DNA of 64,000 nucleotides from Spirochaetia bacterium (GTDB lineage: Bacteria; Spirochaetota; Spirochaetia; DSM-2461): contig CAXXIA010000002.1 of the NCBI GenBank assembly GCA_963666985.2, positions 1,792,001-1,856,000 on the forward strand, given 5' to 3'. Below, piece by piece: positions 34,720-63,895 of this stretch. Within the stretch, counting starts at the first letter, position 1. Every line of letters starts with the position of its first letter. Under the pieces are notes generated by a model, which was not told the DNA's origin, did not search any database, and saw only the letters and a list, made by a program, of their open reading frames with translations. Position numbers and translations under genes: made by a program.

Positions 34720-34929
34720 ACTTAACAGCTGTTGATGCGCTCCGGCGGTAACGAGGTTACCGCCTCCGGGGCTTCGCCCAAATTTCGCTTTGGCGATGGT
34801 TCTTGCGGATGCGTTCCTGCAAGTTGTGTGATAGGCTCAAATACGAACAGGCTTTCTGCTGAAGTGCAAGAACGCATGCCAACCGGCTACGCCGGACGCG
34901 AAACTTCGCATACCAGCGGAACGTTTTAC
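34720..34929 (+). repeat. attC site 19
   Basis: Conserved attC arms. Confidence 0.9.
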
Positions 34930-35027
34930 GAAAAAATCCAAAGGCAATTTACCGTGGCGGCGTCCGTGCCGCCACGAATAGTTTGATGTAATTAAAAAAG
35001 AATTATTTAAAGTTAAGAGAATTCGAA

Positions 35028-35089
35028 AAATAACGCCCGCATAACCTGTTTTTGCGAAGCAAAAAATCTGGTTCATGCGTTTGTTATAC
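35028..35089 (-). repeat. Short classical attC (62 bp) on the minus strand, nested in a cassette
   Basis: Minus strand: GTATAAC AAACG CATGAACC ... GGTTATG CGGGC GTTATTT; begins 11 bp after the pAgo stop. Confidence 0.8.
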
Positions 35090-35100
35090 AGCACTTTTTC

Positions 35101-38100
35101 CTACATGAAATATCGAAAATCATATGCTTGATCATATATTGCTTCTTCCTGTTTTGCCATTCTGGAAAGGACTTTTGCAAAATCAAGTGTTACTGGCAAA
35201 GTTTTATATAAACTATCCCCGCTATTCCAGTTCATCTTGGATAGCATTAGGATCTCTTTTGCAAGAATATCACCAGATGCTTTACCATAGAATCTCTGTA
35301 TGATAAGGGGAACAGGTATTCCTCTTCCGCCTTTGTAATAATTTAATCTGCCTTTTAATTCATCTTGAATTACACATCCATGTGTCCATAAGAGGAAAGT
35401 GTCTGAAGTTAACGAAATCACCGTCCCTCTTTTAATTGCGAAATTTTCAGGGCCACTTTTGATATTGTTATTAAATCGGATTGCTCGCCACGAACAATAC
35501 TCTTGGATTTGAAGTAATTCTATATCATCGATTCCCTCTAAAGCCTGTGTAAATCCAGTAATTTCTTCACGAGTAAAAGGTGTTGTTTTATGAACAACAA
35601 TACGGTTTAGTTTGGCTGTTGGATCACATTTATAATATTGTTCCCGAAGAGAGCTCATCATGGCACGTGCTTCATCTTTCTTCATGAAAGGGTTTTTCCC
35701 AAAATAGCCCGGATCATCTATTTTTCGTAATAATAAACGTATTCCAGTACCTGTAGAGTCAAAAAGTTGACTACAGCCAATACAAATTCCTTTTGATTTT
35801 GATTGAGCATAACTAACACCAACAAACGCCGTTGAATCATTAAGGGTAACAGGTTGCCAAAGAGAACCGGAAGCTTTTGCATATAAACTTGTGGACAATC
35901 CCCAGCGGACTTTGCATGGGTCATAATATTTTATAGATTTATCCTCAATAAACTGAAGCTTTACAGATTTATCTGTTGCATATAATTTTAATGCGTCATG
36001 CAAATTGAAATCATCGTTAGGATCATCACTTTCACGAAATCCAGAAAAGATTGACGGTATATAAATGACAGCAATATCGAAGTTATGACAAGTTGATATT
36101 TTATCAATAAATGATTTCATCAGATCTAAGAAAGCAGCTATATTCAAGATTTTTGCTTTATCTTGATCGTATGTAATAACATAAGAGGTATCGTCTTCCG
36201 AAGGAATTAATATCCCTCGTTTATATACCTGTTCAAAGCCATTGAATAATTGCAGAAACCCATCTTTCTGATTCTTGGGAGAGTGCTTTTGATTGAGAGA
36301 ATTTAGGTGAGATAGTATTTTAGTAATTTGCTGTTTCGGTGAAATAATCAAAAGTTTAATGGAATCTCGTATTAATTTATCCTTTGAGTATGAGTAATCA
36401 ATTGGTCCAAATTTATTGATTCCGAGAAGTTGATTAATGGCTGTGTGTGTCTTATCTTTTACATCGAAAAGCATTTGTGGTTCATCAAATTGATATGCAT
36501 TCAACGATGGCCATTCAGGTTTTCTGTTTATTCCACCACAACTCATGAAAACACTAATAAAGTTTAGTGTAGATCTATTATAACTGAATGAAATAGTTTG
36601 CTCATTATTCTTTTTTAACTTCTTATTCCAGTATTTTAATTTTTCATCATACTGTTTGTTGTATATGCCAGACATTATTTTATTTATAATTTGTTGCTTT
36701 GTAAGTTTATCAACATCAGTTCCGTTAATATGTTGAAGAAAAACAGTTGGCACAATAGAAAGGTAATAATTTCCATTGTAGACTGATAAAGCAATTTCGA
36801 ATCCATCATTTACGTTGTAATTATTTTCATATACATCTTTTTTACTTGGATCATAATATTTATTTTTTCCAAAAGAGATTAATCCTAATTTATTTACAAG
36901 GTGAGTCTTTATTAGCTCATAAAGCATGCCTGTATAAATAGAATCATGTTTATATAATATTTTGTTTGGAATTACTTCTTCACTTATTTCGGATAAAATA
37001 TGCTTCTTGAATACATCTTGAATCCTTTCTTCAATACCGAAACAATAGATTCTGCTCGAAAAAAGGGCAGCGATTATATCATTCTCACCAATAACTTCTT
37101 TTAATTCCTTCCATGAAGTGATATCGGTATCAAAGACTTTGCACTGTGGAAGGCCCGTAGATAAAAATGTATTTGTTTTTATAAAAGAATCTATTTGCTG
37201 ATTGGAGAATGACAAAGGCATCTTTCTCTTAGGAAAATCTATCCAACGATCTTCTATTTGTGCATTAGGTTTATCCTGCATCTTATAGCATTGATACATA
37301 AACTCATCAAACCCAGGTATTTCAACGACACAAGATGATTCGGAGATTGTGCATGCGCTCTCCATTAAAGTAGAAACTCTATCTGATAGATCACTCCCTA
37401 TTGGAATCATCCATACAAGACCATATTTTAGGAAATCCTCTTCACCAATATGTTCTTCAATGACTTTCATAATTGATTCGTCACAACCGGAATAACCAAT
37501 AAAAACAAGACCTGTTCCATATAAACGGCTTTTAAATTGCATTTGCATAGAATTTTCAAGATCTTTCAGCTCAGTAGAAGTGTTTTTTATTTTGTCATAT
37601 CTATAATCCCCATGTAATTTAAAAATAGAAGGAAACGATCTATCAACACAATTTTGAATCCCGTCTTTATTTGCCGAACTAAAAACAGTAAAGCTATGTT
37701 CAGGGCGAATTGTTTTTATTCCGGATTCTATTAATTCATCAAAATTCGTTGTCCAAATGTTCTGTATCTTTTTACCTATAAACAGTTCGGCCAAGCATAA
37801 ATGACCTAATGACGGTGCGATATCTCTGACTTTATATTGTACAAATTGTTCCCTTGCTACGCTAGTTGTATGGCATAATTCAAAGTAGTGGGAATATTCA
37901 TTTGATTCATAAAGTGAGGGGTGTCTGCCTTGTGAATCAAAATATTTCTGCAATTTCAGCTGTGCTGTTTTTGATTGTAGGTCTCTGAATTCTTCTTTTG
38001 AAGTACCAGTTTCAGTACAATAAATATTTCGTTTGAATTCCCAGGTTAATCCACCACCTGTTGGTATTCCTGCTTGAGCTGATGAGCCTGAACCAAGAAA

Positions 38101-38172
38101 GATATCTATACACCCATCATTCATAACGTTGAAATTGCGTAAAAATGTAGGCATATCATTCTTTCTTATCAT
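35101..38172 (-). CDS. SIR2-APAZ-short prokaryotic Argonaute fusion (fused SPARSA type)
   Basis: SIR2 motifs GSGSS..AGIPTG, TTNFD, KLHGD and FIGYSG; C-terminal MID-PIWI (LYAKA, VVHKT, RGT, LSKMNWN, LPVTL); first catalytic Asp replaced (FVGVSY). Confidence 0.9.
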   Translation of the reverse strand: MIRKNDMPTFLRNFNVMNDGCIDIFLGSGSSAQAGIPTGGGLTWEFKRNIYCTETGTSKEEFRDLQSKTAQLKLQKYFDSQGRHPSLYESNEYSHYFELCHTTSVAREQFVQYKVRDIAPSLGHLCLAELFIGKKIQNIWTTNFDELIESGIKTIRPEHSFTVFSSANKDGIQNCVDRSFPSIFKLHGDYRYDKIKNTSTELKDLENSMQMQFKSRLYGTGLVFIGYSGCDESIMKVIEEHIGEEDFLKYGLVWMIPIGSDLSDRVSTLMESACTISESSCVVEIPGFDEFMYQCYKMQDKPNAQIEDRWIDFPKRKMPLSFSNQQIDSFIKTNTFLSTGLPQCKVFDTDITSWKELKEVIGENDIIAALFSSRIYCFGIEERIQDVFKKHILSEISEEVIPNKILYKHDSIYTGMLYELIKTHLVNKLGLISFGKNKYYDPSKKDVYENNYNVNDGFEIALSVYNGNYYLSIVPTVFLQHINGTDVDKLTKQQIINKIMSGIYNKQYDEKLKYWNKKLKKNNEQTISFSYNRSTLNFISVFMSCGGINRKPEWPSLNAYQFDEPQMLFDVKDKTHTAINQLLGINKFGPIDYSYSKDKLIRDSIKLLIISPKQQITKILSHLNSLNQKHSPKNQKDGFLQLFNGFEQVYKRGILIPSEDDTSYVITYDQDKAKILNIAAFLDLMKSFIDKISTCHNFDIAVIYIPSIFSGFRESDDPNDDFNLHDALKLYATDKSVKLQFIEDKSIKYYDPCKVRWGLSTSLYAKASGSLWQPVTLNDSTAFVGVSYAQSKSKGICIGCSQLFDSTGTGIRLLLRKIDDPGYFGKNPFMKKDEARAMMSSLREQYYKCDPTAKLNRIVVHKTTPFTREEITGFTQALEGIDDIELLQIQEYCSWRAIRFNNNIKSGPENFAIKRGTVISLTSDTFLLWTHGCVIQDELKGRLNYYKGGRGIPVPLIIQRFYGKASGDILAKEILMLSKMNWNSGDSLYKTLPVTLDFAKVLSRMAKQEEAIYDQAYDFRYFM

Positions 38173-38189
38173 ATAACAACCCTCTATCC

Positions 38190-38669
38190 TTATAACTCCA
38201 TCAAATCATTCCAATTATTCCGTAGGTACAATTCAATTCCTCTTCCAGGAGCATATTGCGGGTATTTTTCGAGAAAACTGTTCTTGGCATTTATATAACT
38301 GGTATTTGAAATTTCATTTTTTCTTGCAAGATAAACAAGACCGATTGAAGGAGATCGTGAAAAACCTTGATTGCAGTGGATAAGAATCGGTTTCACTGAT
38401 AAGTATTTCTCAATAAAATCAAAGGATGATTTCATAATTGGATGAGTAAATTTAGGAAGAAACTCTCTTTCCATATCTACCATATTTAGATAAAGATGAT
38501 CGGTTGTCACAAAAACAAGATAGTTTGGATGCGTCGAAGACAAATTCCCTCTATAACCAACACCTTTCTGATGACATGTTTTACAAGCATGTATTATTGC
38601 GATATCTGAACGGTTATTTAAACAATCTGAATCATCACCAATATAAATATTGTAATTAATTTTGGTCAT
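38190..38669 (-). CDS. Dual-specificity/tyrosine-phosphatase-like protein
   Basis: HCNQGFSRS (HCxxGxxRS); ends 17 bp upstream of the pAgo start; ATG 38669 preferred over track start 38687. Confidence 0.82.
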   Translation of the reverse strand: MTKINYNIYIGDDSDCLNNRSDIAIIHACKTCHQKGVGYRGNLSSTHPNYLVFVTTDHLYLNMVDMEREFLPKFTHPIMKSSFDFIEKYLSVKPILIHCNQGFSRSPSIGLVYLARKNEISNTSYINAKNSFLEKYPQYAPGRGIELYLRNNWNDLMEL

Positions 38670-38939
38670 ACTCCATCCTTTATTCAATAAACTTATATCT
38701 CTTTCTTTTCCCTCTGAATGAATTTTTCAAAGATTCTGTCCGTATGACATTATATATTATGTACTTTGTCGATAATTCGTAAAATCTGTATAAAATTGTG
38801 CAAAAATGTCATATAAGGAGAATATCAAGTATAAATTATGTAGTAAACTGTTAAGTGAATTAGAGTTCATACTAAGTCCATCAGAATCACGTCCTGTGAT
38901 TCTGATGCATTTTTTATTGGCTCTTGGCTGGATTTCATC

Positions 38940-39076
38940 GTAAAACAGATGTTATGAGGTTCCGGCTGGCTATCGCCAACCTTCACCCAAATTGGCTTTT
39001 GTCATGTTGTTTGCGAGGCAAACAACACGCCAACCCTCCGGGTCAGCCAACTTCTCATAACATCGGGCCGTTAAAT
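38940..39076 (+). repeat. attC site 20 (short divergent variant, 137 bp)
   Basis: AAC AGATG TTATGAG...CTCATAA CATCGGGCC GTT. Confidence 0.8.
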
Positions 39077-39205
39077 GACAAAACAAAAATTTAATTCCCC
39101 GCTGCACCGTCCTGGTGCAGCGATTCGAAAGCAAAGAATTAATATCAAATTATTGAGGCCACACGGTTTATCCTAATCGCTTTTGGTTTTTCTAAAGCAG
39201 ATTTC

Positions 39206-39969: not shown

Positions 39970-40180
39970 ATTTAACAGCTGTTGATGCGCTCCGGCGTCA
40001 ACTGGCGTTGCCGCCTCCGGGCCTACGGCCAAATTTCGCTTTGGCGATGGTTCTTGCAGATGCGTTCCTGAAAGTGGTGTGATAAGCTGACGAGTGAACA
40101 GGCTTTCTGTTGAAGTGCAAGAACGCATGCCAACCGGCTTCGCCGGACACGAAACTTCGCATACCAGCGGGCCGTTTGAT
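39970..40180 (+). repeat. attC site 21
   Basis: Conserved attC arms. Confidence 0.9.
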
Positions 40181-40417
40181 GACAGAATTAATTTAGGAAA
40201 GAGTTTTTCTCATTTTTTAAAAGAAGAGGAGGCAATTTCTCTCACAAATATCAATTTAAATTCGTGAAAAGCTCTGAAAGTTTTTTGAGAAAAATCAAAG
40301 TGCTCCAGTTGTCAAGGTTGATTTTCCTGATATGAGTCTTGTTCAGTTGAATAAGAACAAGAGAGCCTTTTCACGGTGTTTGATCTTTATGGGCTTTGCT
40401 TAATTCCGTCATCAAAC
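40174..40417. repeat. ORF-less cassette family A, copy 3
   Basis: Highly similar to 5751-5993. Confidence 0.9.
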
Positions 40418-41700: not shown

Positions 41701-41911
41701 ATCAAACAGCTGTTGATGCGCTCCGGCGTCAACTAGCGTTGCCGCCTCCGGGGCTTCGCCCAAATTTCGTTTTGGCCATGGTTCTTGCAGATGCGTTCCT
41801 GGAAGTTGTGTGATAGGCTCAAATACGAACAGGCTTTCTGATGAAGTGCAAGAACACATGCCAACCGGCTGCGCCGGACACGAAACTTCGCATACCAGCG
41901 GAACGTTTGAT
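41701..41911 (+). repeat. attC site 23
   Basis: Conserved attC arms. Confidence 0.9.
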
Positions 41912-42147
41912 GACAGAATTAATTTAGGAAATAGTTTTTCTCATTTTTTAAAAAAAGAGAAGGCAATTCCCCTCACAAATATCAATTTAAATTCGTGAAA
42001 AGCTCTGAAAGTTTTTGAGAAAAATCAAAGTGTTCCAGTTGTCGAGGTTGATTCTCCTGATATGAGTCTTGTTCAGTTGAATAAGAACAAGAGAGCCTTT
42101 TCACGGTGTTTGATCTTTATGGGCTTTGCTTAATTCCGTCATCAAAC
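41905..42147. repeat. ORF-less cassette family A, copy 4
   Basis: Highly similar to 5751-5993. Confidence 0.9.
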
Positions 42148-44291: not shown

Positions 44292-44492
44292 AGCTGTTGA
44301 TGCGCTTCGGCCGCTAAAGGTGTTTAGCGGCCTGCGGGGCTCCGCCCAAATTTGCCTCTGTCATAGATTTTGCTTAAGTCTGTCGCTATGGTAAGATGAG
44401 TTGTAGTTAGCGGTTGAGGCTGTGAAGATTCGCAAAATCTCCGCCAGTCGCTTCGCGAGCGGCAAACTTCGCATACCAGCGGGCCGTTTTGT
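44285..44492 (+). repeat. attC site 26
   Basis: Conserved attC arms. Confidence 0.9.
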
Positions 44493-44529
44493 GAACAAAC
44501 CAGAAATTGAACCCAAGTCCTCTTAACGT

Positions 44530-44558
44530 TTGAGTTTGCTTTTTACATGTGCTATTAT
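44530..44558 (+). promoter_or_regulatory. Retron promoter
   Basis: TTGAGT-17-TATTAT with extended -10 TG; predicted start near 44565, the 5' end of the ncRNA. Confidence 0.6.
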
Positions 44559-44564
44559 TTTCTT

Positions 44565-44697
44565 GTCCTTAGCAAGAAGCCTCGGCTTCATTCGGTTGGT
44601 GTATAGCCGACCTGAGCGAATTGTTAGATATCTTCGCAAGAAGAGTCCTTTTATTGAGAATAAAAGGACTCTTCTTCCTCATGCCCTTAGTAAGGAC
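44565..44697 (+). ncRNA. Retron msr-msd RNA
   Basis: Terminal IR GTCCTTA/TAAGGAC; putative branching G at 44572 in TTAG context; two small msr stems; perfect 18-bp msd stem at 44638-44676. Confidence 0.82.
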
Positions 44698-44701
44698 TTT
44701 T

Positions 44702-45625
44702 ATGAATTGGAAGAATAATCCCAATTACCTAATAGCCAAAAGGGATTTTACGTTAGCGTTTTCCACGCGATTGTTAACAAATCTATACTATTCAATGCCA
44801 AAAATTGTTTTTATTTGTGGTGGCAAGCCGACAAATTTCGTTAATCGCGAGAAGATCGAGAGATACTTTGAAAAAAATCTAGAGAGATTCTTAACCTTCC
44901 GCGCTGAGAATGCCTGGAATGTAATACAGGAAAATTTAAGAGGTACAAATGCACTAGAATTGGAAGAATGGTTAGCAGATTTTTCAGATGTTGTAATTAT
45001 ACTAGTCGAGAGCTTTGGGACAGTTGCAGAGCTTGGCGCTTTCTCTATGAATTCAATACTAAGAAAAAAGGTTCTTCCAATTTTAGATACAAAATATGAA
45101 GGAGATGATTCTTTTATAAATACTGGACCAATAAAGTGGATCGATAAAGAGTCCAAATATTCTCCTTCGATATATGTTGATTTTAGTCTGATTTTGACGT
45201 GCATGGACGAGGTTGAACAAAGAATATCAAAGCGATATTGGGAGTATCACAACGTATCCAGGACCTATGGAAAATATGGATATACCAAAAAAGTTCTTCT
45301 CTATTTCTTTATTTATGTTTTGGCCTCATTAGGGCCGATTGACATTGATGAGATAGTTGAAATAACAAATAATCTTATCTCGTATCAAGATAAGAAAAAT
45401 ATTCAGTTTATCGTATCTATCGGTGTAGCCCTAAAGATTTTTCAAAAACGTAGTGTAATGGGCAATGTGTACTATACCTGCTCAAACTATCGGAAGCTTT
45501 TCTCAAGTCCAATCACTAAAGACCACCTGAAAAGGATTCAAAATATTCGAGCGAGAAATTTATCGTCACTACTGAAAATTAAGGACTTTGTAAAAGTTAT
45601 GGACTCGGCGAATGTCAATAGTTGA
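44702..45625 (+). CDS. Retron type II-A effector (St85/RcaT-like NDT-fold plus wHTH)
   Basis: IVFICGG, RAE, LEEWLADFSD and LVESFGTVAELGAF motifs; AAGGA RBS before ATG 44702. Confidence 0.85.
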   Translation: MNWKNNPNYLIAKRDFTLAFSTRLLTNLYYSMPKIVFICGGKPTNFVNREKIERYFEKNLERFLTFRAENAWNVIQENLRGTNALELEEWLADFSDVVIILVESFGTVAELGAFSMNSILRKKVLPILDTKYEGDDSFINTGPIKWIDKESKYSPSIYVDFSLILTCMDEVEQRISKRYWEYHNVSRTYGKYGYTKKVLLYFFIYVLASLGPIDIDEIVEITNNLISYQDKKNIQFIVSIGVALKIFQKRSVMGNVYYTCSNYRKLFSSPITKDHLKRIQNIRARNLSSLLKIKDFVKVMDSANVNS

Positions 45626-46538
45626 ATTAATTTCGAAACAAATGTTACTAGAGGAAGATTATCTCCTCACAATATCAAAAAGTTCGTCTGCAAGATACAA
45701 ACGTTTCACTATTAAAAAACGGAATGGCGGTGATCGAGTAATTTACCAACCTTCAAAAGAATTGAAATCAATTCAAAGAGTTCTTCTCGATATGTTTTTG
45801 TCTAAACTTCCTATTCACTCTTATGCATATGCATACAAGAGTGGAACAACCACAAGAGATTGTCTTCAAAATCATTCGGAGAACAAATATTTTCTTAAAC
45901 TTGATATGCAAGACTTTTTTTACAGTATAACAAATAGCGATCTCGACAAATACTTTAAAGATATTAGGAGGGAAGACATTATACACCTCTCATCTTGTGA
46001 TATAACTTTTATCAAAGATATTTGTTGTTTTAACAAAAGACTTGTAATCGGAGCCGTTACATCTCCAACATTATCAAATGCAGTTTGTTTTAATCTAGAT
46101 CAAAAGATATCACTACTCTGTGAAAGTCTGGAGGTTGAATATAGTAGATATGCCGATGATTTAATTTTTTCCACAATGAAAAGAAATGCGTTATCAAAGC
46201 TTCCTATTCAGATTGAAGCTTTACTAAAGAAAATTTCTTATCCAAGCGCGTTACGTTTGAATCATAACAAAACTCGATATTATTCGCATAATAATGCAGT
46301 AAAGATATTAGGTCTTAAAATTACTAACACCGCAGAAATTTCGATTGGCCGACAAAAAAAACGCGAAATTAGAAGTAAAGTGTACAAGTGGAATCACCTC
46401 AATCCCGATGAAAAAAAGCATCTTCAAGGATTTTTGGCTTATTGCAGAAGTGTAGATCCGGTCTTCATTGATGAGTTGTGTCTAAAATATAAAGCAGAGC
46501 GAATTAACGATATAATCCATTATAGTGGAAAAGGCTAA
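45612..46538 (+). CDS. Retron reverse transcriptase
   Basis: KKRNGGDRVIYQP, KLDMQDFF, GAVTSPTLSN, YSRYADD and ILGL motifs. Confidence 0.92.
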   Translation: MSIVELISKQMLLEEDYLLTISKSSSARYKRFTIKKRNGGDRVIYQPSKELKSIQRVLLDMFLSKLPIHSYAYAYKSGTTTRDCLQNHSENKYFLKLDMQDFFYSITNSDLDKYFKDIRREDIIHLSSCDITFIKDICCFNKRLVIGAVTSPTLSNAVCFNLDQKISLLCESLEVEYSRYADDLIFSTMKRNALSKLPIQIEALLKKISYPSALRLNHNKTRYYSHNNAVKILGLKITNTAEISIGRQKKREIRSKVYKWNHLNPDEKKHLQGFLAYCRSVDPVFIDELCLKYKAERINDIIHYSGKG

Positions 46539-46582
46539 AATTTTTTCTGGGCTTGTTACAAAGGTAATCTAGGCGTTTGTTC

Positions 46583-46799
46583 ACAAAACAGCTGTTGATG
46601 CGCTCCAGCTGATAACGAGGTTATCAGCCTCCGGGCCTTCGGCCAAATTTCGTTTTGGCGATGGCTCTTGCAGATGCGTTTCCGAAAGTGATGTGATACC
46701 ATCAAAGGCGAACAAAGCATTGCAGTAGAAGAGCAAGAGCACATGCCAACCGGCTTTCAGCCGGACACGAAACATTCGCATAACAGCGGAACGTTAAGC
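46583..46799 (+). repeat. attC site 27
   Basis: Conserved attC arms. Confidence 0.9.
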
Positions 46800-46817: not shown

Positions 46818-48160
46818 TGAGCGACCAGGACATCCTTTACATTTTAGGTTCAGGACATCGTTTACACAAAACAAGCTTAAACGAAGCATTTGAATCCATC
46901 AACTGAAGGGAGAAAGGCATAGGTTTTCAAATCAATTTCTCCCAATCTGAGATTGTCAAACCATACGGTGAAGCTCTCATCCTCATTCTCCCGAAGTCCA
47001 ACTTGGTATCCTGAAAAGACATAACTGACAAAGACTCTATGCCTGTCGATAGTAACGGCTCCCCGATTATTCACCATTCTCACCAGATACCCGGCCGGGT
47101 AGATCACCTGAGGGATTCGAGGAGGGAAAGGCCGATTGGACTTTGTGTAAATACTTCCGGGAGTCTGCATTTTGAGAGCTTCATGCGGACGAACACTGTT
47201 GAATTGATTTCTCCAAACATCAAAGTGTGCCTGATGTTCTGAGAGGTTCCCTTGAATCTGTCCCTGCAATTCGCGTTTGATATCGGCATGCATTCTTTCA
47301 TGCCCTCCGTTTTCACAAGGCCTTCCTGGAGTGATGCGATCAAGTTCAATTCCCAAGGCCAGCCACCAAACACTTAAGCGGGTGAGTCCGAGTAATCCCT
47401 TCATGGAAGCAAAGGGTGGTCCGTTATCGGAGCGGATTACCCGAGGGATTCCATAGAGAGAAAAGAGCTTTTCGAACTCTGTTCTAACTTCTTGTGTGTC
47501 AGCCTTTTGGAGAGCTTTGATGGTGAAGATGTATTTGGAGTATTCATCCCGAACCGTCAGAGGTTCACACTTTTCATTATCGGGAGTGTACCACCATCCT
47601 TTGAAGTCGACCGTCCAGATATCATTAGGGGCTTTGGCCTGCAGATGTGTTTGGATTCGGCTGCCTTTGGTCTGCTGCCGTTTCTTTCGATGATGAACCA
47701 GTCCTGCTTTATCAAGGATGCGTTTGACGGTGGTGAGGCTTGGGGGATTATTATGAGGATGGGTCTTCTGGTAGATCTCGAGAATCTTTTTTGGCCCCCA
47801 GCTGGAGTTGTGCAACGTCTTGATCCGGATAATACCGCATATAACGTCTTCAGGCGTTTGGTTGGGGCTGCTGCGAGGTCTACGGGGTCGTTCCTTCAAC
47901 CCGGCGAGCCCTTCCTGGATAAACCGGTTTTTCCATTTAAGGCCTGTCGGCCGGGAGATCCCGTACTCAGCACAGAGGTCTTTCATACAGACATGGGGAT
48001 CCATGGCCTTGAGGGCGAACTCGAATTTGACGTCCATAATATTGGTCTCCTTCCACGGCATAACCAGCACCTCGATAAGGGAAAGTGCTGATCATTTTAG
48101 TTCTTGTCGTGTAAAGGATGTCCTGGTACTCTCGTGTAAACGATGTCCTGAACCCGTACC
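46818..48160 (-). mobile_element. IS481-family copy 4
   Basis: 1343 bp; TSD TGTT. Confidence 0.9.
46877..48070 (-). CDS. IS481-family transposase
   Basis: Identical protein to 6334-7527. Confidence 0.93.
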   Translation of the reverse strand: MLVMPWKETNIMDVKFEFALKAMDPHVCMKDLCAEYGISRPTGLKWKNRFIQEGLAGLKERPRRPRSSPNQTPEDVICGIIRIKTLHNSSWGPKKILEIYQKTHPHNNPPSLTTVKRILDKAGLVHHRKKRQQTKGSRIQTHLQAKAPNDIWTVDFKGWWYTPDNEKCEPLTVRDEYSKYIFTIKALQKADTQEVRTEFEKLFSLYGIPRVIRSDNGPPFASMKGLLGLTRLSVWWLALGIELDRITPGRPCENGGHERMHADIKRELQGQIQGNLSEHQAHFDVWRNQFNSVRPHEALKMQTPGSIYTKSNRPFPPRIPQVIYPAGYLVRMVNNRGAVTIDRHRVFVSYVFSGYQVGLRENEDESFTVWFDNLRLGEIDLKTYAFLPSVDGFKCFV

Positions 48161-50657: not shown

Positions 50658-50867
50658 GCCAAACAGCTGTTGATGCGCTCCGAATACATTTGCATGCAAA
50701 TGTATTCTCCGGGGCTTCGCCCAAATTTGCCTCTGTTACAGATTTTGCGAGAGGCTGCGACCGTGGTAAGATGAGTTGCAGTATGCGGATGAGGTTGTGA
50801 AGAATCGCAAAATCTCCGCCAGTCGCTACGCGAACGGCAAACTTCGCATACCAGCGGCCCGTTTAAT
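50658..50867 (+). repeat. attC site 29
   Basis: Conserved attC arms. Confidence 0.9.
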
Positions 50868-50933
50868 GAAAAAGCCAGAAGGCATTTCACCGCCTCGGCA
50901 TCCATGCCTCGGCGAGTAGATTGAATTAGGAGT

Positions 50934-51206
50934 ATGAAAACTATGAATGTAAGAGACATTCTCATTGTCAAAAAAGCAAAGAAAATAGAGAACTTCGATC
51001 CTATTGTCCTTGGAACACAGACGCTCACCAATGTGAGCAAAGAACAAACTGATAAGGATGCTAGTTCCCATAACGGATTTGAGTTAGGTACACAAACTAG
51101 AACATTTACTCAAGAAGAAATGACAGACAGTGATACAGACAGAATACAACTTGGTACTCAGACTGTGACGAAACATATGGCTGAGGGTACAGACGAAGAT
51201 CGATGA
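50934..51206 (+). CDS. Graspetide (ATP-grasp RiPP) precursor with three cores
   Basis: Three copies of LGTQTxTxxxxExTDxD after a leader; start may be ATG 50943. Confidence 0.85.
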   Translation: MKTMNVRDILIVKKAKKIENFDPIVLGTQTLTNVSKEQTDKDASSHNGFELGTQTRTFTQEEMTDSDTDRIQLGTQTVTKHMAEGTDEDR

Positions 51207-52150
51207 TTCTTCTAGTTACAAATACCGAAGATAAAACAGCTGACTACCTAGAGAGAAATACAAAGAATTCCTTCTTACGTTTCAATACTGAGAAATTTCT
51301 GACAGAGTATAAACTCTCGTATTCGAACAGTGGATTCGAACTACAACATGTCTTATCAGGGAAAATTGTCACAAATCAGAATTTAAAAGGAGTGATCTAT
51401 CGTAGACCAACTTATCCTGACGTGTCAGCTGATGACGGATCCACGAAGCTTCAAGAAGAATTGAGGAATGAAGCTCGAATAATATACGAATCAATACTAG
51501 GTAGTATTGATACAAGATGGATCAGTGAACCATATAGCGTGAGGAAAGCAGAAAATAAACTACTACAACTCAAGTATGCAAGAAATGTAGGTCTTTCAAC
51601 ACCAAAAACAATTGTGTCAAATGATAAAAACCAGGTAGAGGAGTTTTTACGAACGGCAAATTCAAGGTTGTGCATTAAGCCTATGCATCTTGGCATATTC
51701 GAGATAAAAGACGAAATCTACATACCATACAATACAATAATTTCTTATGAAGATATTTCTGCAGTTGATAACTATCCAACCTTGATACAAGAATATGTCG
51801 AAAAACAATATGAAGTTAGGGTGGTTATAATCGGAGAAGCCGTTTTTTCTATCAGAATAGATTCTCAAAAGAATGCTGATACGAAATTTGACTGGAGAAC
51901 AAATAACTGTATGGCTGTTGAATACTCAATTACAGAAATACCTTTTGAAATAGAGAATAAATGTAAGCAGTTAATGAGTGAATTTAATGTAAATTTCGCT
52001 TCAATGGATCTTGCCATCAATGAGAACGGAGAATATGTGTTTCTAGACTTGAACCCTAACGGTCAATGGGCTTGGCTAGACGAATTATTGAATTTAAACA
52101 TGACTAACGCCTTCATCGATTTTTTCGACAAAGGAGATAAATATGTTTGA
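51203..52150 (+). CDS. MvdC/MvdD-type ATP-grasp peptide macrocyclase
   Basis: AENKLLQL, PKTIVSN, QEYVEK.YEVRV, IDSQ, DWR and FLDLNPNGQWAWL motifs. Confidence 0.9.
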   Translation: MILLVTNTEDKTADYLERNTKNSFLRFNTEKFLTEYKLSYSNSGFELQHVLSGKIVTNQNLKGVIYRRPTYPDVSADDGSTKLQEELRNEARIIYESILGSIDTRWISEPYSVRKAENKLLQLKYARNVGLSTPKTIVSNDKNQVEEFLRTANSRLCIKPMHLGIFEIKDEIYIPYNTIISYEDISAVDNYPTLIQEYVEKQYEVRVVIIGEAVFSIRIDSQKNADTKFDWRTNNCMAVEYSITEIPFEIENKCKQLMSEFNVNFASMDLAINENGEYVFLDLNPNGQWAWLDELLNLNMTNAFIDFFDKGDKYV

Positions 52151-52676
52151 TCCAGTTCATATCTTGGAAGAAAAAAATAATAGCACCCTAAGTCGATATG
52201 AATCATTTTACTCAAAGCAAAATTCCATTTTCACTTTAATGACGCTACTTGTTACGGTTTTTCTTTTTCTTGCCGGCGAACATTTTCCAGCTGTCAATTC
52301 TTTGTTTACAGTTACTGATAACACTTGTTTCGAAATGGTACTAGCCGTATCTATTACAATTACATTTGTTGTTGTACTTATTTTCTTCTTCAATTTGCTA
52401 TTTCAAATTCTCTCCGGACTCAAGCCAATTGTTTTCTCTGAATTGGACTATGAAGCTATCGATGAATTCAACAAAGGCAAAGAAGAGAAGGCATATAAGA
52501 TATTGATAAAAGACATGAAGAATGTGATTGATAGTAACCAGGAGGCAATAAACGAGAAATATAATGTTTTTCTAAAAGTGAAGTCCAATTTTACAATATT
52601 TCTCTTCGTATATATGTTTTTGGTTGTTCTTGTCTTTGTCGCGACTTTTTATGCAGGAATTAATGCTGGCAGCTGA
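52143..52676 (+). CDS. 3-TM membrane protein (Pycsar PycTM/DUF5706-like architecture)
   Basis: K-TM1-TM2-P, soluble loop, N....K, TM3 layout; overlaps ligase stop. Confidence 0.6.
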   Translation: MFDPVHILEEKNNSTLSRYESFYSKQNSIFTLMTLLVTVFLFLAGEHFPAVNSLFTVTDNTCFEMVLAVSITITFVVVLIFFFNLLFQILSGLKPIVFSELDYEAIDEFNKGKEEKAYKILIKDMKNVIDSNQEAINEKYNVFLKVKSNFTIFLFVYMFLVVLVFVATFYAGINAGS

Positions 52677-52747
52677 CTATCTCATTAGCATCTGAAGCAC
52701 ATCGTGTGCTTCAGATGAATTTATGAAGTTTTTTAGCTGGCTTCGTC

Positions 52748-52961
52748 ATTAAACAGCTGTTGATGCGCTCCGGCGATAATCGGGGATTATCGCCTCCGGG
52801 GCTCCGCCCAAATTTCGTTTTGTCATGGCTCTTGCAGATGCAGTTCCGTAAGTGATGTGATACAGTCAAAGAAGAACATGGTGTTGCTGTAGAAGAGCAA
52901 GAGCACATGCCAACCGGCTTTGCCGGACACGAAACGTTCGCATAACAGCGGGCCGTTAAAT
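52748..52961 (+). repeat. attC site 30
   Basis: Conserved attC arms. Confidence 0.9.
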
Positions 52962-58839: not shown

Positions 58840-59537
58840 GAATGGCTGAGATAAGATCGGTACAATGTACAGATATTTTACTGTATTACCCGGATGAATT
58901 TCAAACCAACTCGCTTGTATCGCAGAATTTCTTGGTAGAAGTTCAAGAGAAGTTTTCTCTCACTTTGGGCGTTCCTCCAATAGCAGTTCAAACAAATCAA
59001 AGCCCAGTTGTCTTTACAGGGGGAATCTACAAATACGAAGATAAAGAGTATCCCATCGAGAATCTTCAAATAGAAAATCGAAAAGTTACAATTGCGGGGC
59101 AGTGCGAGACGTCAATTTTAAACTCATTTTACTCAGAGTTTCTTGTTGTTGTGGACAAATACGATCCTAGGCAAACACCTTCCCAACATAAGAGCCTAGT
59201 TCATACCAATGAGACTGTAGCGGTTTGTAAATTCGACAAACCCTTTTCTGCATTTCTTAGTACTGGACTAGTCTCAGAAATTCCCGAAGCCTTGCATACT
59301 AAAATTAACAACCATGGTGGAATAGTCATTGTGGAACCTTACTCAGTAAAATATAAAATCAAATATCGAGATGTACCTGAAAAAATAGTTGATAATAAAA
59401 TCCAATTAGTAGACAAGTTTCTTACATTTGAAGTTCGTGAGAAAACGTCAATTACTGAGTGTATTATTTTTACTGTATCTCCGTGTGATTTTGACACACA
59501 CATGAAGTTGATAGAAACCGTAGAAAAAATGCTCTAG
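58836..59537 (+). CDS. Hypothetical protein translationally coupled to hicAB
   Basis: 233-aa ORF overlapping the hicB stop. Confidence 0.75.
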   Translation: MRMAEIRSVQCTDILLYYPDEFQTNSLVSQNFLVEVQEKFSLTLGVPPIAVQTNQSPVVFTGGIYKYEDKEYPIENLQIENRKVTIAGQCETSILNSFYSEFLVVVDKYDPRQTPSQHKSLVHTNETVAVCKFDKPFSAFLSTGLVSEIPEALHTKINNHGGIVIVEPYSVKYKIKYRDVPEKIVDNKIQLVDKFLTFEVREKTSITECIIFTVSPCDFDTHMKLIETVEKML

Positions 59538-59623
59538 GCTGGCTTGGTTTTCAAGATTGATTTTTATGATTCATCCGCTACCTTCATGTACTGGGTGAAG
59601 AGGTCTCTCCACAAACAGACTTC

Positions 59624-59838
59624 AGGAAACAGCTGTTGATGCGCTCCGAATACATTTGCAAGCAAATGTATTCTCCGGGGCTCCGCCCAAATTTCGCTTT
59701 GGACATGGTTCTTGCAGATGCGTCTCTGGAAGAGATGTGATACATTCAAATGCGAACAGGCTTTCTGTTGAAGTGCAAGAACGCATGCCAACCGGCTTCG
59801 CCGGACGCGAAACTTCGTATACCAGCGGAACGTTTTAC
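59624..59838 (+). repeat. attC site 33
   Basis: Conserved attC arms. Confidence 0.9.
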
Positions 59839-59929
59839 GAAAAAATCCAAAGGCATTTTACCGTGGCGGCGTCCGTGCCGCCCCGAATAGTTTCATATAA
59901 TGGAAATAGAAATATTTAAAGTTAATCTA

Positions 59930-59983
59930 ATACAACGTCTCCATAACGAGCCGACTCGGTCTCTGTTCATGGCATTGTTATAT
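59930..59983 (-). repeat. Short classical attC (54 bp) on the minus strand, nested in a cassette
   Basis: Minus strand: ATATAAC AATGC CATGAAC ... GTTATG GAGAC GTTGTAT; begins 4 bp after the S8 protease stop. Confidence 0.75.
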
Positions 59984-59987
59984 GGTA

Positions 59988-62219
59988 TTAATTCCGTACA
60001 CGTGCTCTATCTGAAATTCTTAGATCACTTCTATTCCATCCAAGAGAATTCATTTCCTTTACCATCTCATTAAATATAGGTATGTTTTTTTCATGATCTC
60101 TTACACTAACTAATAAAGCAAACTTTTGAGGCTCTAATTGCATATTATGTGTTTCAAATCTTCTCTGAAGATTCAACTTCAGCCTCCAGATGTCACCACT
60201 ACACCCCCGAGGAAAAATTCTTCTATATACTTTCACTGGGGACCATTTAAATCCGTGTTCGATTTGTTCTGATTCATATAATTTATTGATATCTTTAGGA
60301 TCAATTGGAACTTTCTTTGAATGTTTTCCATTTTTAAAAATTCCTAATGAGACTTCAATATTTGATCGGCAATACTCTGCTAGAAATGACGAGTCAGTAG
60401 GTGGTGAATATACCAAAGTCATTAATAATTCTCCATGGAACTTACCGTCAGCTCGTAATGATTCGGGTAGAGGAAAAGGTTGGCGGCTAAATTCTAAAGA
60501 ATCATATAATTCTCCCTCAAAAATCATAGTGCAAGTAAATGGATCACCAGTTAAGAATTTAATTGGTTCAAGCGGTTTTCCAAAACCATAGTATTTTACT
60601 TCTTCTGCAGTTCGTATTGGTGAATCTAGTACCGCACTATGAATGACCAAAGCCTTTATTAATTCTTTTGAAATATCACCAGATATTAATTTTGTGTACT
60701 GTGAAGCTATACTTGAAACTATAGGTGTAGAGAAACTAGTCCCAATATTTTCAGAATGCTTTGAGTCTGCAGAAACCGAAAGAACACCTGTTTGAGAATA
60801 GTTACCATTTTTATCACAATTTCCACCATAATGAATAATTTCTGGTTTTGGAATGAAACTCGGTCCGGGGCCTCTTCTAGAAAAAGGGGAAGGCTCTTCA
60901 TTTCGAACTAAAGTAATTGGTGTAAATTTATGTGTTATTGAACCAACAGATAACGCCCGAGATGAATCACCAGGTGTAGAAATTCTATCATCAATACTTA
61001 TATCACTAGGTGGCCAGTTTCGGAGAGGTATATTTGTGTAATTACCTGCTGATATTACAAATAATACATTATAAGTATCTTGTAATTCATCAAAATAACT
61101 TGCTAGTGAAGAATATGAGAACGAATCAGTAGGCGTTGAGGCTCCTAAAGAAAGATTCCAAATACGTACATAAGGAAATGATTTTATAGAATCTTCAATG
61201 GTCTCTTTGAGATCCTCTTCTGAAATTCCATTTTTGGGAGATAAAGCGCGGATGTCAATGATTTTAGCATGTACATTAGGGAAACGTGGATCGGAGTGGT
61301 TTAAACTATGATTATTAGCTATTAATCCTCCGACAAAAGAACCATGCTCAAAATCCGTTTCTTTATCTATAATCCTTTTTTTCCTAGCAACAACCCAATC
61401 CGATAGAGCTTTATTGTCATCATGAATACCTGTATCAATAATTCCAACTATTGGGTAATCGACTGATTTATCAGGTTTTGGAAAGAGTTGCTCATGCAAA
61501 TCTCCAATTGTTATATTAGTCGTTTTTAATGTTTCATATTGAGGGAACAAAGACACAGTTCTAACAGGAGGGAAAATGCATAATTTTGGAATTGTTTGAT
61601 TGTCATTAATTTCTGCCTTATATACAATTTGGTTTTTCCCATAGTTAATTTTTTTATATTTTAGAATGCCAATTTCTTCAAATACAGATAATAAACATTT
61701 ATTAATTTTATTATTTAACTCAGTATCCTTAAAATCGAATAAACTAATTTTTATCTCTCTGAAATTTTCAATAGAAATACTTGAATCAATACGATCAAAT
61801 TGAGAATAATCTAAAAAGCTTTCAAGTGATGAGATATTTGCGATATTTTCTTTTGTAGTCCCTTCCTCTATAATTCTATTCAGTTTTTCAAGACCGATCT
61901 CATTTACTCTTATTAGAAGCTTTCCAAATCCATAATCACCAATAATTGGACATGTAGAGTTATTTAATAGCGATGATGGACGATGACTTTTTGCAATAGC
62001 CTCTTTCTTTAATTCAACTCGTGCAATATTAGGTATGTTTGGCCATTTATGAAATGTTTTTTTATATTTCTGGTTAATGCTTGAAATTTGATTTGAATAT
62101 AATGAGCGCAATGACGGTGTAACATTTGAAAAAACTTTTTTAGGACCGCCAGATGAATAGGGCTTATGGTGATCTCGTTCAGAAATCGTAATTACCTGAA
62201 GGGGATATTCATCTGACAT
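59988..62219 (-). CDS. ietS: S8 subtilisin-like protease (IetS-like)
   Basis: Catalytic triad IIDTG, HGSFV and GTSFSTP; NLSLG; SAGN; KPE. Confidence 0.85.
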   Translation of the reverse strand: MSDEYPLQVITISERDHHKPYSSGGPKKVFSNVTPSLRSLYSNQISSINQKYKKTFHKWPNIPNIARVELKKEAIAKSHRPSSLLNNSTCPIIGDYGFGKLLIRVNEIGLEKLNRIIEEGTTKENIANISSLESFLDYSQFDRIDSSISIENFREIKISLFDFKDTELNNKINKCLLSVFEEIGILKYKKINYGKNQIVYKAEINDNQTIPKLCIFPPVRTVSLFPQYETLKTTNITIGDLHEQLFPKPDKSVDYPIVGIIDTGIHDDNKALSDWVVARKKRIIDKETDFEHGSFVGGLIANNHSLNHSDPRFPNVHAKIIDIRALSPKNGISEEDLKETIEDSIKSFPYVRIWNLSLGASTPTDSFSYSSLASYFDELQDTYNVLFVISAGNYTNIPLRNWPPSDISIDDRISTPGDSSRALSVGSITHKFTPITLVRNEEPSPFSRRGPGPSFIPKPEIIHYGGNCDKNGNYSQTGVLSVSADSKHSENIGTSFSTPIVSSIASQYTKLISGDISKELIKALVIHSAVLDSPIRTAEEVKYYGFGKPLEPIKFLTGDPFTCTMIFEGELYDSLEFSRQPFPLPESLRADGKFHGELLMTLVYSPPTDSSFLAEYCRSNIEVSLGIFKNGKHSKKVPIDPKDINKLYESEQIEHGFKWSPVKVYRRIFPRGCSGDIWRLKLNLQRRFETHNMQLEPQKFALLVSVRDHEKNIPIFNEMVKEMNSLGWNRSDLRISDRARVRN

Positions 62220-62229
62220 AATAATGCTC

Positions 62230-63321
62230 CTATTTTAATAGATTTGATATTTTCCCAACTGAATAATTAAATATCTCACTAATTACTTCATAAGTAAAAT
62301 ATTTGGGGTTAACAGCTCTAAGATGCTTAATAACTGAAATCTCACTAGTATCAATTTGATTGTTGGAAGCCTTAAATAAATCTATGATTGTGTCGCGTAA
62401 ATTGATTTTCTCATAATTATTTACAATTTTATTTCTAATATTATTCTCAATAATATTTTTAATCTCCGATCCGGATAATCCATCTGACGCAATCGAAAGA
62501 AGGATATTATTTTTTTCATCAATAAATCCGTGAGAATATTTGTTTATTATTTTACTTCTAGTTTCGTCATTTGGTAATGTAATATTTAATTTAAAGTTAA
62601 ATCTTCTCCAGACAGCGGGATCAAGTAAATGTTCATGATTTGTCGCTGCTAATAGAATAGTATACGAATCCAAAGCATCGATATTTTGTAATAAACTAAC
62701 TACAACCCTTTTTAATTCACCTAATTCGTTGTGATCATCCCTGACTTTAGCAAGAGAATCGAACTCATCTAGAAAAAGAATGCAAGGACGTGAGTTAACA
62801 TATTCAAATAATTGTCTAATATTTTTAGCAGTACTTCCTAAATATGAAGAAATTAGTGTATCACTTCTGGATACTATGAGCGGTAATTTTAGTTGGGAAG
62901 CGATATAGTGTGCTAATTCAGTTTTACCACACCCTGGAGGGCCATATATTAGCATTGACGGTGAAATACCAACACCATCTTTAAGAAGTTGATCTGATGC
63001 TTTTACATATTTTATAAAATTTTGTATGTCTATTGTAATATGATCGTCTAAATACACCTCAACATTTTGTGTGAAATATTTCTCATCAGCTAATGAGGAT
63101 TTTGATTCTTGATCTATTGGAATAGGTTTAATACTAAGATCTTGGGTAAATAAATTATTGGTTTTGATATTGTTTATTTTATTAATAATTCGCGTAGATG
63201 ACCCTGTATCACCTTGAATAGCTAAATTTTCTGAAAGTAATTTACTATATGATATGATTTTATCTTTATCTAATTGAAGACCGCCTTCAATTATCTTTAG
63301 AACTTCTGATAAATATTGCAT
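62230..63321 (-). CDS. ietA: AAA+ ATPase (IetA-like)
   Basis: GPPGCGKT, FLDEFDS, ELGELKRVV and LDPAVWRRF motifs; ATG 63321 with GAGGGA RBS. Confidence 0.85.
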   Translation of the reverse strand: MQYLSEVLKIIEGGLQLDKDKIISYSKLLSENLAIQGDTGSSTRIINKINNIKTNNLFTQDLSIKPIPIDQESKSSLADEKYFTQNVEVYLDDHITIDIQNFIKYVKASDQLLKDGVGISPSMLIYGPPGCGKTELAHYIASQLKLPLIVSRSDTLISSYLGSTAKNIRQLFEYVNSRPCILFLDEFDSLAKVRDDHNELGELKRVVVSLLQNIDALDSYTILLAATNHEHLLDPAVWRRFNFKLNITLPNDETRSKIINKYSHGFIDEKNNILLSIASDGLSGSEIKNIIENNIRNKIVNNYEKINLRDTIIDLFKASNNQIDTSEISVIKHLRAVNPKYFTYEVISEIFNYSVGKISNLLK

Positions 63322-63624
63322 TATTCCCTCTTGTGAAAATATATACCAATTCGTGAAAAAATGCAATATATAATGAAAATGTATCATAATATGTGAAAAA
63401 AATAAGCTATATATGAAATATCCTTCTCGATATAACATTATAGATTATCTACTTTGTCGGTAATTCGTAAAATCTGTATAAATTATACAAAAATGTCTTT
63501 TAAGCAGCATAGCAAGTATAAATTATGTAGAAAACATTAAAAGAATTAACGTTTACATTAGTCCATCAGAATCATGTCCTGTGATTCTGATGGTGTTTTT
63601 ATTGGCTCTTTTCTGGATTTCATC

Positions 63625-63895
63625 GTAAAACAGCTGTTGATGCGCTGCGGACGCTAACGAGGTTTGCGTCCTTGGGCCGAGCGATGGGAAACTATGAGTT
63701 TTATGATTTCTGTAAAAGGGAAAAATCAAATTGGTTCGGCTCGGCCAAATTTCGCTTTGGCGATGGCTCTTGCAGATGCGTTCCTGGAAGTTGTGTGATA
63801 GTCTGAAGAGAGAACAGGCTTTCTGCTAAAAGCAAGAGCGCATGCCAACCGGCTACGCCGGTCGCGAAACTTCGCATACCAGCGGAACGTTAATT
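63625..63895 (+). repeat. attC site 34 (long)
   Basis: Conserved attC arms. Confidence 0.9.

Follow-up and report, generated by a model that had tools for sequence, protein, structure and literature searches.

Integron theory provides one attI site and one Pc promoter per array, and the available sections of a recent account describe distant cassettes as silent until they reach the first position; in the same sections, sedentary integrons carry defence cargo, as do the cassettes studied here (10.1101/2024.07.02.601686). According to the accessible parts of two reports, the large arrays of Treponema and Vibrio integrons include short ORF-less cassettes that can promote on either strand (PMC6557892; 10.1101/2023.11.21.568050). 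Recognition of the extrahelical bases of attC is ascribed to the additional domain of IntI in the available part of another paper (PMC7790495). Our literature search found no description of a cassette nested in a carrier cassette.

The window, i.e. the whole 64-kb stretch of spirochaete DNA that was analysed, lies in a cassette array with 88 attC sites. The host integrase has 277 aa and scores below the TIGR02249 cut-off. Its IntI-specific region contains 49 residues versus 91 in IntI1 and in seven canonical family enzymes, so that 42 of the 91 residues (I2 helix region) are missing. Neither a canonical IntI nor a remnant of one was detected in the 93%-complete assembly, where this short integrase is the sole IntI-like enzyme. 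An 88-cassette array would be run by an integrase lacking a domain held necessary for attC recombination.

Two cassettes, hereafter carriers 1 (34923-38946) and 2 (59832-63631), are both flanked by host-type attC sites. The original prediction had described them as cassettes with unrelated cargo and homologous ends, and its coordinates were exact: 170 of 198 columns are identical between the right ends (38748-38946 versus 63436-63631) and 93 of 111 between the left ends, and the cargos have no DNA similarity to each other. Their features are the following.

34720-34929, plus strand: host-type attC upstream of carrier 1, part of the previous cassette; its R' GTT (34923-34925) opens carrier 1.
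34923-35033, plus strand: left arm of carrier 1, with the terminal inverted repeat, a GC-rich hairpin common to ordinary cassettes (34953-34976) and ~45 bp of carrier-specific sequence; its last bases are the TT that follows the inner crossover.
35028-35089, minus strand: the 62-nt inner attC, of classical type, that belongs to cargo 1; its R' crossover G is at 35034, and its arms match attC sites resident in L072 and L073.
35034-38747, minus strand: whole nested cassette 1, entry G/TC (the slash marks the crossover).
35101-38172, minus strand: defence cargo 1, a predicted fusion of 1023 aa between a SIR2 domain and a long pAgo (PADLOC PDLC02420, 1273 bits; pAgo PDLC02384, E 4e-203; Pfam SIR2_2).
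38190-38687, minus strand: ORF resembling a dual-specificity phosphatase, the first gene of cargo 1, called at 165 aa (PF00782, E 1e-7, 32.3 bits, below the Pfam cut-off of 33.5).
38748-38878, minus strand: dock of carrier 1, a candidate attI-like acceptor with putative promoter; crossover G at 38748, TATAAT at 38754-38749.
38879-38946, plus strand: outer right end of carrier 1, common to ordinary cassettes, with a terminator-like hairpin and T-run (38879-38907) and a terminal repeat ending in the host R''.
38940-39076, plus strand: host-type attC of carrier 1, a rare 127-nt subtype that also follows the third carrier.
59832-59935, plus strand: left arm of carrier 2.
59930-59983, minus strand: the 54-nt inner attC, also classical, that belongs to cargo 2; it has its R' crossover G at 59936, and its arms match the L066 attC, with the central loop missing.
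59988-62219, minus strand: predicted IetS subtilase, 743 aa, defence cargo 2 (PADLOC PDLC02197, E 1e-255).
62230-63438, minus strand: predicted IetA AAA ATPase, 402 aa as called (PADLOC PDLC02196, E 8e-133); the true start is probably near 63321, since the profile match opens at residue 40.
63436-63562, minus strand: dock of carrier 2, with its crossover G at 63436 and a TATAAT at 63442-63437; a candidate attI-like acceptor.
63563-63631, plus strand: outer right end of carrier 2, with a terminator-like hairpin (63563-63593) and terminal repeat.
63625-63895, plus strand: host-type attC of carrier 2, a 261-nt subtype unlike that of carrier 1.

A third carrier was recovered outside the window (G000:C2:1917201-1920106), with a type IIG-like restriction-modification gene as cargo; its right end is identical to that of carrier 1 at 193 of 198 positions and breaks at the same point. 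The shared ends define a carrier in part only. The outer ~60 bp on the left and ~70 bp on the right, hairpins included, are also found on ordinary cassettes without an inner attC, and what is specific to the carrier amounts to just ~130 bp at the right end and ~45 bp at the left. The carrier backbone, of ~310 bp, holds no integrase ORF, and no intI lies inside or next to any carrier. Like a host-lineage cassette, the carrier is bounded by host attC sites, has complementary ends and occupies several (three) array positions. It would act as a platform without integrase and is not a complete integron. An origin of the carrier from a group II intron or an IS was rejected, the backbone showing no matching ORF or ends. 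Cassette 2871-5555, considered as a fourth, decayed carrier, was likewise discarded: it offered half-site likeness alone and was picked up by no model.

Carriers of this kind could stem from repeated capture, with no exchange in place, if blocks made of attI, one cassette and 45 bp of flank had been lifted from a small donor integron with a single, changing cassette, and each repackaged in host-type ends. The hairpin ends would suit such an origin, being a generic chassis round unrelated cargo in the host array and in G004, G019 and L014, and so would carrier 2, which diverges directly after the inner crossover and closes with a different host attC subtype. Against it, carriers 1 and 3 are 97% identical across dock, hairpin and terminal repeat and end in the same host attC subtype, present at just 3 of the 88 array positions, yet their cargos are unrelated. 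This near-identical backbone and rare subtype point to one ancestor whose cargo changed later. With no donor integron found in the genus and family genomes or in the class sample, we regard repeated capture as improbable, and exchange of cargo within a standing carrier is the reading pursued below.

The inner sites had been predicted to be short, classical attC sites of another family than those of the array. As proposed there, they were scored with a covariance model, built here on 15 attC sites of other genomes (10 from class 1 plasmids and 5 similar), the window sequence being excluded. The model ranked 35028-35089 (minus strand) first in the 64 kb, with 29.9 bits and E 2e-5, and 59930-59983 (minus strand) second, with 20.2 bits and E 0.007, both E-values being rough; it gave a full-length match at none of the 34 host attC sites of the window. 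All three inner sites align over their full length, with R''-5 nt-L''...L'-5/6 nt-R' geometry and the extra base at L'' position 4. They are thus classical by the model, but not all short, since the third has 135 nt. Genome-wide (4.86 Mb), with 150 of 1132 candidates scored, the full-length classical matches were exactly these three; unfiltered searches, which covered the window and 95.5 kb more of the array, agreed. The bottom-strand fold of site 1 had z = -4.1 (0 of 200 shuffles as good) and that of the third site z -4.55; for site 2, z was -2.3 (4 of 200 shuffles as good), the R box being open in the lowest-energy fold.

All three carriers break at the same G of a G/TT, which different cassettes have used in all three copies; the fixed breakpoint predicted from two carriers thus held in the third. 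The entry bases after the G complement the R'' of the inner attC itself at 6/7 (carrier 1), 7/7 (carrier 2) and 9/9 positions (third carrier), the trace expected of attI x attC insertion, as had also been proposed for the first two, and the chance of such a complement in all three is ~2e-5 with variable positions alone counted. The entry core of cargo 1 reads G/TC, one change from G/TT, and nested cassette 1 may be locked in by it. In relatives, arrays with a canonical IntI contain attC sites that match the inner ones (82% over 134 nt for the third). Moreover, cargo 1 (35032-38737) occurs at ~92% identity without the carrier in metagenome run X4, from an independent study. This 3819-nt contig holds the same short attC and no carrier left arm, and the match has its 3' boundary exactly at the attC GTT; on the 5' side it stops 10 nt inside the predicted end, so that the 5' cargo boundary is not independently supported. 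Trimming of the short inner attC by the carrier was ruled out for site 1, the free copy in X4 differing by one base in length. Taken together, the third copy, the attC model, the homologous attC sites that accompany canonical IntI in relatives and the carrier-free cargo 1 support the conclusion that each cargo is a classical cassette of foreign origin that entered by integron-type recombination, always at the same G/TT, and sustain the IntI-type insertion signature of the original prediction.

Searches for the carrier ends, also suggested there, yielded the third carrier with its other cargo; neither an empty nor a two-cassette carrier was found in the host genome, the relatives or the collections searched. 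Beyond outer-hairpin or chance matches, carrier copies were absent from 13 genus and 37 family genomes, and none was detected in a 401-genome class sample, a search with 2 candidates scored per genome that missed carrier 2 itself. The three exact dock patterns gave 0 matches in genome, metagenome and viral collections, and the left-hairpin pattern gave seven loci (six GC-rich chance matches and one spirochaete contig without dock). Runs X3, X5 and X6 contained pieces of cargo and short attC or hairpin matches with no dock, such contigs showing presence and not absence. Nine loci with SIR2-pAgo relatives (33-68% identity) showed no matching carrier and no convincing attC. For cargo 2 no close copy was found, the sole IetS relative (44% identity) lying on a short contig, and Rfam gave no match in the window.

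The dock had been proposed to be an attI-like acceptor. A profile made of hand-picked attI sites of relatives over a 20-nt window put the docks in 1st and 2nd place among 5246 GTT sites of the array, and a 30-nt window placed them 2nd and 30th. A blind profile of Gibbs-picked sites ranked the three docks 11th, 12th and 17th of 8033, i.e. in the top 0.25%, for the sequence left of the G. By the profile that suits the docks, the host's own attI had a near-median score. Of 149,224 GTT sites in the genome, the 25 best-scoring included none of the docks, and the whole ~130-bp segment compared with 17 intI-attI regions gave a best p of 0.03 in 51 comparisons, which is not significant. Three of the seven testable training sites were confirmed 9/9 by their first cassette (one partial, one mismatch, two with no detected attC). 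The attI resemblance varies with the training set, and it is moderately supported, from profile ranks, that the dock is an attI-like acceptor, resembling attI of the canonical lineage and not that of the host. The inward promoter proposed with it, like expression anywhere in the array, found no support: a TATAAT does abut the crossover, but promoter-like sites in the carrier ends are at chance level (3 versus 2.7 and 3 versus 2.5 expected) and do not include this TATAAT.

These data bear on a secondary-site explanation, in which an ordinary gene-less cassette with a favoured GTT served as attG-like hotspot; a canonical IntI would have inserted there three times, and selection would have kept the insertions near an AT-rich promoter-like stretch, with no attI ancestry or routine exchange. 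According to the accessible part of a report, IntI uses genomic GWT hotspots at near-attI rates, and cassettes near a promoter are expressed (10.1101/2022.09.11.507474). The non-significant whole-segment comparison is in line with this, as is the AT-richness of the dock, which inflates profile scores (AT-matched fractions 0.002-0.05). The three classical matches of the genome all sit at one dock site, however, and the rank of the sequence left of the G by the blind profile also argues against a chance hotspot. The GWT core is present, whereas the CRGM motif at +6 to +9, defined for IntI1 only and hence for another enzyme, is absent from all three right halves. We consider the hotspot explanation unlikely and retain the attI-like dock.

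The original prediction implied that the host IntI loads the carriers. The short integrase would then both move the carrier via the long sites and insert classical cassettes at the dock; in favour of this, it has no IntI-like companion in the assembly, and classical attC sites also occur in the short-integrase arrays of G028, G029 and G034. G029 and G034 encode a canonical IntI too, nevertheless (G028 has none over the cut-off), and no classical attC in the forward direction closes any of the 88 array positions. The 42 missing residues and a host attI unlike the dock make the host enzyme an unlikely loader, and the double role assigned to it appears quite improbable. Canonical IntI over the TIGR02249 cut-off is present in 24 of 38 family genomes; G029 and G030 each hold one together with an integrase of the host's short clade, and G004 and G019 each hold one together with host-type cassette ends.

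We favour, at somewhat better than even confidence, two nested integron lineages: a mini-integron without integrase, loaded in trans by a canonical IntI and moved by the host integrase. The outer unit would be a cassette of ~310 bp that holds no gene and belongs to the host array, with its patch-less short integrase and long atypical attC, and inside it, facing backwards, would lie an attI-like site of the canonical lineage. A canonical IntI once in the same cell would have loaded and swapped cargo in trans, and the host integrase would move the carrier, once loaded, in the same way as other cassettes. The dock would supply a Pc-like promoter, so that large defence cassettes could be expressed far from the array promoter. 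The reversed orientation would separate the two site types. It would also place the bottom strand of the inner attC on the template of the lagging strand, as suggested by the GC skew, which becomes positive just before the array, and by the available part of PMC5371416. The cargos are probably frozen at present, because the assembly lacks a canonical IntI.

More tentatively, and short of even confidence, carriers may be an evolved adapter between incompatible integron systems, a mobile attI-plus-promoter that provides large sedentary arrays with position-independent, exchangeable slots for the expression of defence cassettes. Such adapters might be general in spirochaete arrays in several independent designs, reversed here and forward within the loops of host attC sites in G028, G029 and G034. 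If this is true, a cassette with its own dock would allow several large defence systems to be active simultaneously at any array position, one gene-capture system could store and move the genes of another, and cassette traffic would have a concrete route between integron lineages with mismatched sites and enzymes.

As in CALINs served in trans, where cassettes without neighbouring integrase are mobilisable by an IntI elsewhere (available part of PMC4889954), no integrase accompanies the carriers. An empty carrier would be an ORF-less cassette of the Treponema/Vibrio type, with a putative promoter; the accessible part of PMC6557892 mentions neither a recombination dock nor a nested cassette. 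attG insertions and SALINs (10.1101/2022.09.11.507474, in its available part) are likewise single classical cassettes away from an integrase, at a GWT site and expressed there from a resident promoter; the carriers differ by one site used three times in copies of a mobile unit, attI-like and without the IntI1 CRGM. Delta-attI-type cassettes also have an attI piece within a cassette array, and there recombination with IntI1 was shown. In them, the attI piece takes the place of the cassette attC, located downstream of the gene and oriented with the array, whereas in the carriers inner and host attC are both intact, and the attI-like site is found in reversed orientation, upstream of a foreign cassette that is complete, in an intact host cassette and seemingly of another integrase lineage. 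The dock resembles a canonical integron platform in taking classical-attC cassettes at one G/TT with R''-matching entry; unlike it, it has no intI beside it, holds one cassette per dock, and is itself part of a cassette of a second lineage, in reversed orientation.

As the original prediction had stated, two cassettes of the window have homologous ends around unrelated cargo (170/198 identical positions at the right ends, 93/111 at the left ends). A genome search recovered a third carrier outside the window, whose right end is identical to that of carrier 1 at 193/198 positions and ends at the same G.

34923-38946: carrier 1, host-type cassette holding reversed cargo 1 (phosphatase-like ORF and SIR2-pAgo)
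35028-35089, minus strand: inner attC of cargo 1 (site 1)
38748-38878, minus strand: dock of carrier 1, the attI-like acceptor
59832-63631: carrier 2, holding cargo 2 (IetA-IetS)
59930-59983, minus strand: inner attC of cargo 2 (site 2)
63436-63562, minus strand: dock of carrier 2
C2:1917201-1920106 (contig coordinates): third carrier, holding a 761-aa N6-methyltransferase nearest to type IIG restriction-modification enzymes, with inner attC site 3

The bases following the G had been proposed to be complementary to the inner attC's R'', and they are so at 6/7, 7/7 and 9/9 positions in the three carriers, a complementarity expected by chance at about 2e-5 when only positions varying between copies are counted. 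The core of carrier 1 is GTC. Carrier 2 diverges immediately past the inner crossover and also differs in its host attC subtype. Other cargos had been expected at the same G, and the third carrier, with a different cargo, breaks there too. No empty or double-loaded carrier was found in this genome, in relatives' genomes or in wider sequence collections. Likewise, relatives' genomes and wider genome and metagenome searches yielded no carrier copy beyond this genome. The reversed Mrr-nSTAND3 cassette at window 2871-5555 has ends of the chassis type. Past its stop codon lies a half-site similar to the third inner attC, and directly after an extended -10-like motif comes an 8/9 match to the R'' of this half-site. 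The half-site was scored by no attC model; the cassette is possibly a decayed fourth nesting.

The outer 60-70 bp of each carrier end, including terminal repeat and hairpin, are 74-90% shared with ordinary cassettes of the array and with cassettes lacking an inner attC in two relatives' genomes (G004 and G019) and at locus L014. Carrier-specific DNA comes to only about 130 bp at the right end and 45 bp at the left end. On the plus strand the right hairpin resembles a terminator; the left one did not score as such. Searching with the cassette-end motif gave a Spirochaetaceae contig as the sole non-chance match, and the host is accordingly regarded as a presumptive spirochaete. Many unrelated cassettes have two hairpins in common, one about 30 nt from their left end, the other at a distance of about 40 nt from their right end (window 1279, 17492-18662 and 50861-52754; loci L095, L096, L103 and L014), both with GGA or CGA in the loop on the minus strand; we take the GGA loop to be reminiscent of CsrA sites. 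That unrelated cargo is framed by one chassis may be informative about the way cassettes arise.

The inner sites are classical attC sites. Folding of their bottom strands gave z = -4.1, -2.3 and -4.55 (sites 1, 2 and 3), and a covariance model of 15 attC sites, all from beyond this genome, gives its two highest scores in 64 kb to the two window sites. Site 3 is the sole match of this model with E < 1 in the additional 95.5 kb of array. With a model of 15 family attC sites, not independent since two are close kin of the inner sites, the three inner sites are the only full-length matches genome-wide (150/1132 candidates scored). Near relatives, from the attC sites of other family genomes, are those of L072 and L073 for site 1, of L066 for site 2, and of L069 and L064 for site 3 (82% over 134 nt). 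L064, L066, L069 and L072 adjoin canonical intI genes; L073 adjoins a short recombinase, and its genome has a canonical one as well.

Carrier 1 was compared with four sequencing runs. In X4, a marine metagenome from another study, a 3819-nt contig matches 35032-38737 with 290 differing letters and 3 gaps (about 92%). The match stops at the GTT of the inner attC, the next 83 letters being unlike the carrier left arm; at the opposite end it breaks off 10 nt short of the predicted cargo start, and the 29 letters beyond resemble an IS end. Thus, the 3' boundary of cargo 1 is independently confirmed, the 5' boundary not. A second X4 contig matches 35032-35089 alone and represents the same attC family in a different cassette. 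Taken together, the insertion signature in three carriers and one cargo seen free indicate that, as judged from sequence, the nesting is real. The loose end of the first contig has a 10-letter word in common with the ends of identical 397-aa rve transposase elements (window 6334-7527, 27902-29095 and 46877-48070), inserted 19-26 nt past cassette starts, suggesting the same targeting of such starts.

The host array, which contains the whole window (G000:C2:1792001-1856000), spans ~158 kb, includes duplicated cassettes and has 88 attC sites, all of them long (127-267 nt). These sites have an asymmetric spacer (1 vs 5 nt) and lack the classical extra base. At the array head lies a divergent 277-aa tyrosine recombinase (L017:234-1067 = G000:C2:1777133-1777966), whose match to TIGR02249 is confined to positions 2-177 and 240-314, below cut-off. 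Alignment gave 49 residues in its IntI-specific region, as against 91 in IntI1 and seven canonical family enzymes, the IntI patch being wholly absent. In the available text of the sources, this patch is the part recognising attC extrahelical bases (PMC7790495) and also defines IntI (PMC9668308). Relatives of the short integrase head arrays in G028 and G029 as well; the literature searched yielded no description of a 277-aa patch-less integrase running such an array.

Several other features of the array were noted. A 243-bp gene-less cassette occurs eight times (window 5752-5993, 9980-10222, 40174-40417, 41906-42147 and four others) and a ~845-bp family in about 7 copies, both unrelated to the carrier. 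The cassette at window 44486-46589 encodes a 334-aa ORF of unknown kind as well as a reverse transcriptase; ahead of them, a stretch rich in hairpins (44521-44629) has a weak attC score (E 0.07) and is more likely a retron ncRNA than an attC. Central loops of host-type attC (window 38996-39052 and others) are homologous to those of classical family attC sites, with different arms, hinting at shared ancestry of the two site types. Two integrase genes have an attC immediately upstream on the same strand: a host-type attC ahead of canonical IntI (L061:9722-10866, G012) and a classical one ahead of a short recombinase (L073:9253-10337, G029).

To characterize the dock, an attI profile was derived from 16 crossovers picked by eye, with the carriers already seen, from 18 canonical loci with a complete 5' end; L036 and L043 were omitted, having no clear site. 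For seven picks the first cassette allowed a check: three matched at 9/9 and one at 6/7, one was a mismatch and two had no detected attC. Among 5246 array GTT sites, carriers 3 and 2 take ranks 1 and 2 with a 20-nt window, ranks 2 and 11 with 12 nt, and ranks 2 and 30 with 30 nt. The upstream sequence of carrier 1 is that of carrier 3, and the attI of the host itself has a profile score close to the median. Run blind over the full set of 18 loci, a Gibbs sampler recovered 11/16 of the hand-picked sites; its profile ranks the docks 11th, 12th and 17th of 8033, and outside the top 25 of 149,224 GTT sites genome-wide. The whole 130-bp dock aligned to 17 intI-attI regions with a best p = 0.03 among 51 comparisons, the nearest being L033, from the same genus, with the crossover almost in register. 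Profile ranks are high and whole-segment alignments weak; the dock therefore looks like a canonical-lineage attI, from which it may descend. The inward promoter originally proposed there gains no support from promoter consensus matches, which are at chance level; the crossover TATAAT may belong to the AT-rich attI motif instead of being a -10 box.

Canonical IntI scores over cut-off in 24/38 family genomes, and neither the enzyme nor a remnant was found in this assembly, which is 93% complete and consists of 3 contigs without any N. G029 and G030 hold canonical IntI together with an enzyme of the host's clade; the two systems therefore meet in one cell. A canonical IntI, later lost or only passing through, would have loaded the cargo in trans. 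The carrier itself would move as a host cassette, given that it occurs at three positions, that its ends are complementary and that carriers 1 and 3 share the rare 127-nt attC subtype. GC skew becomes positive around 1.7 Mb of C2, which would place host attC bottom strands on the template of the leading strand and the reversed inner ones on that of the lagging strand. In the available text of PMC5371416, large sedentary arrays have attC bottom strands on the leading strand's template, and the lagging strand's template favours folding. On balance we lean towards this trans-loaded attI-dock mechanism, with recombination and transcription putative.

Classical attC sites also lie within host-type sites in forward direction in G028, G029 and G034, so that cross-lineage nesting occurs beyond this genome too; this is a second geometry of nesting. 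Complete classical attC were noted inside or just past a host-type attC left arm at L078:13809-14068, L099:468-712 and G029:C1:5021656, 5025230 and 5027806, and a leader with a TATAAT-like hexamer precedes those of G028 and G029. By its sequence organization, the carrier probably behaves like an integron that has no integrase and is itself carried as a cassette, and is not a complete integron. No attI-like dock nested in a second-lineage cassette was found described in the main texts of a literature lying largely outside subscription journals, nor in the available portions of PMC3607928, PMC8876359, PMC8352920 and 10.1101/2024.07.02.601686. All parts are of known kinds and their arrangement appears undescribed. 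From the available text of each source, the nearest described things are delta-attI-type cassettes (PMC12901181), from which the carrier differs, attG hotspots and SALINs (10.1101/2022.09.11.507474), the dock not being an attG by the IntI1 definition, ORF-less promoter cassettes (PMC6557892) and CALINs served in trans (PMC4889954).
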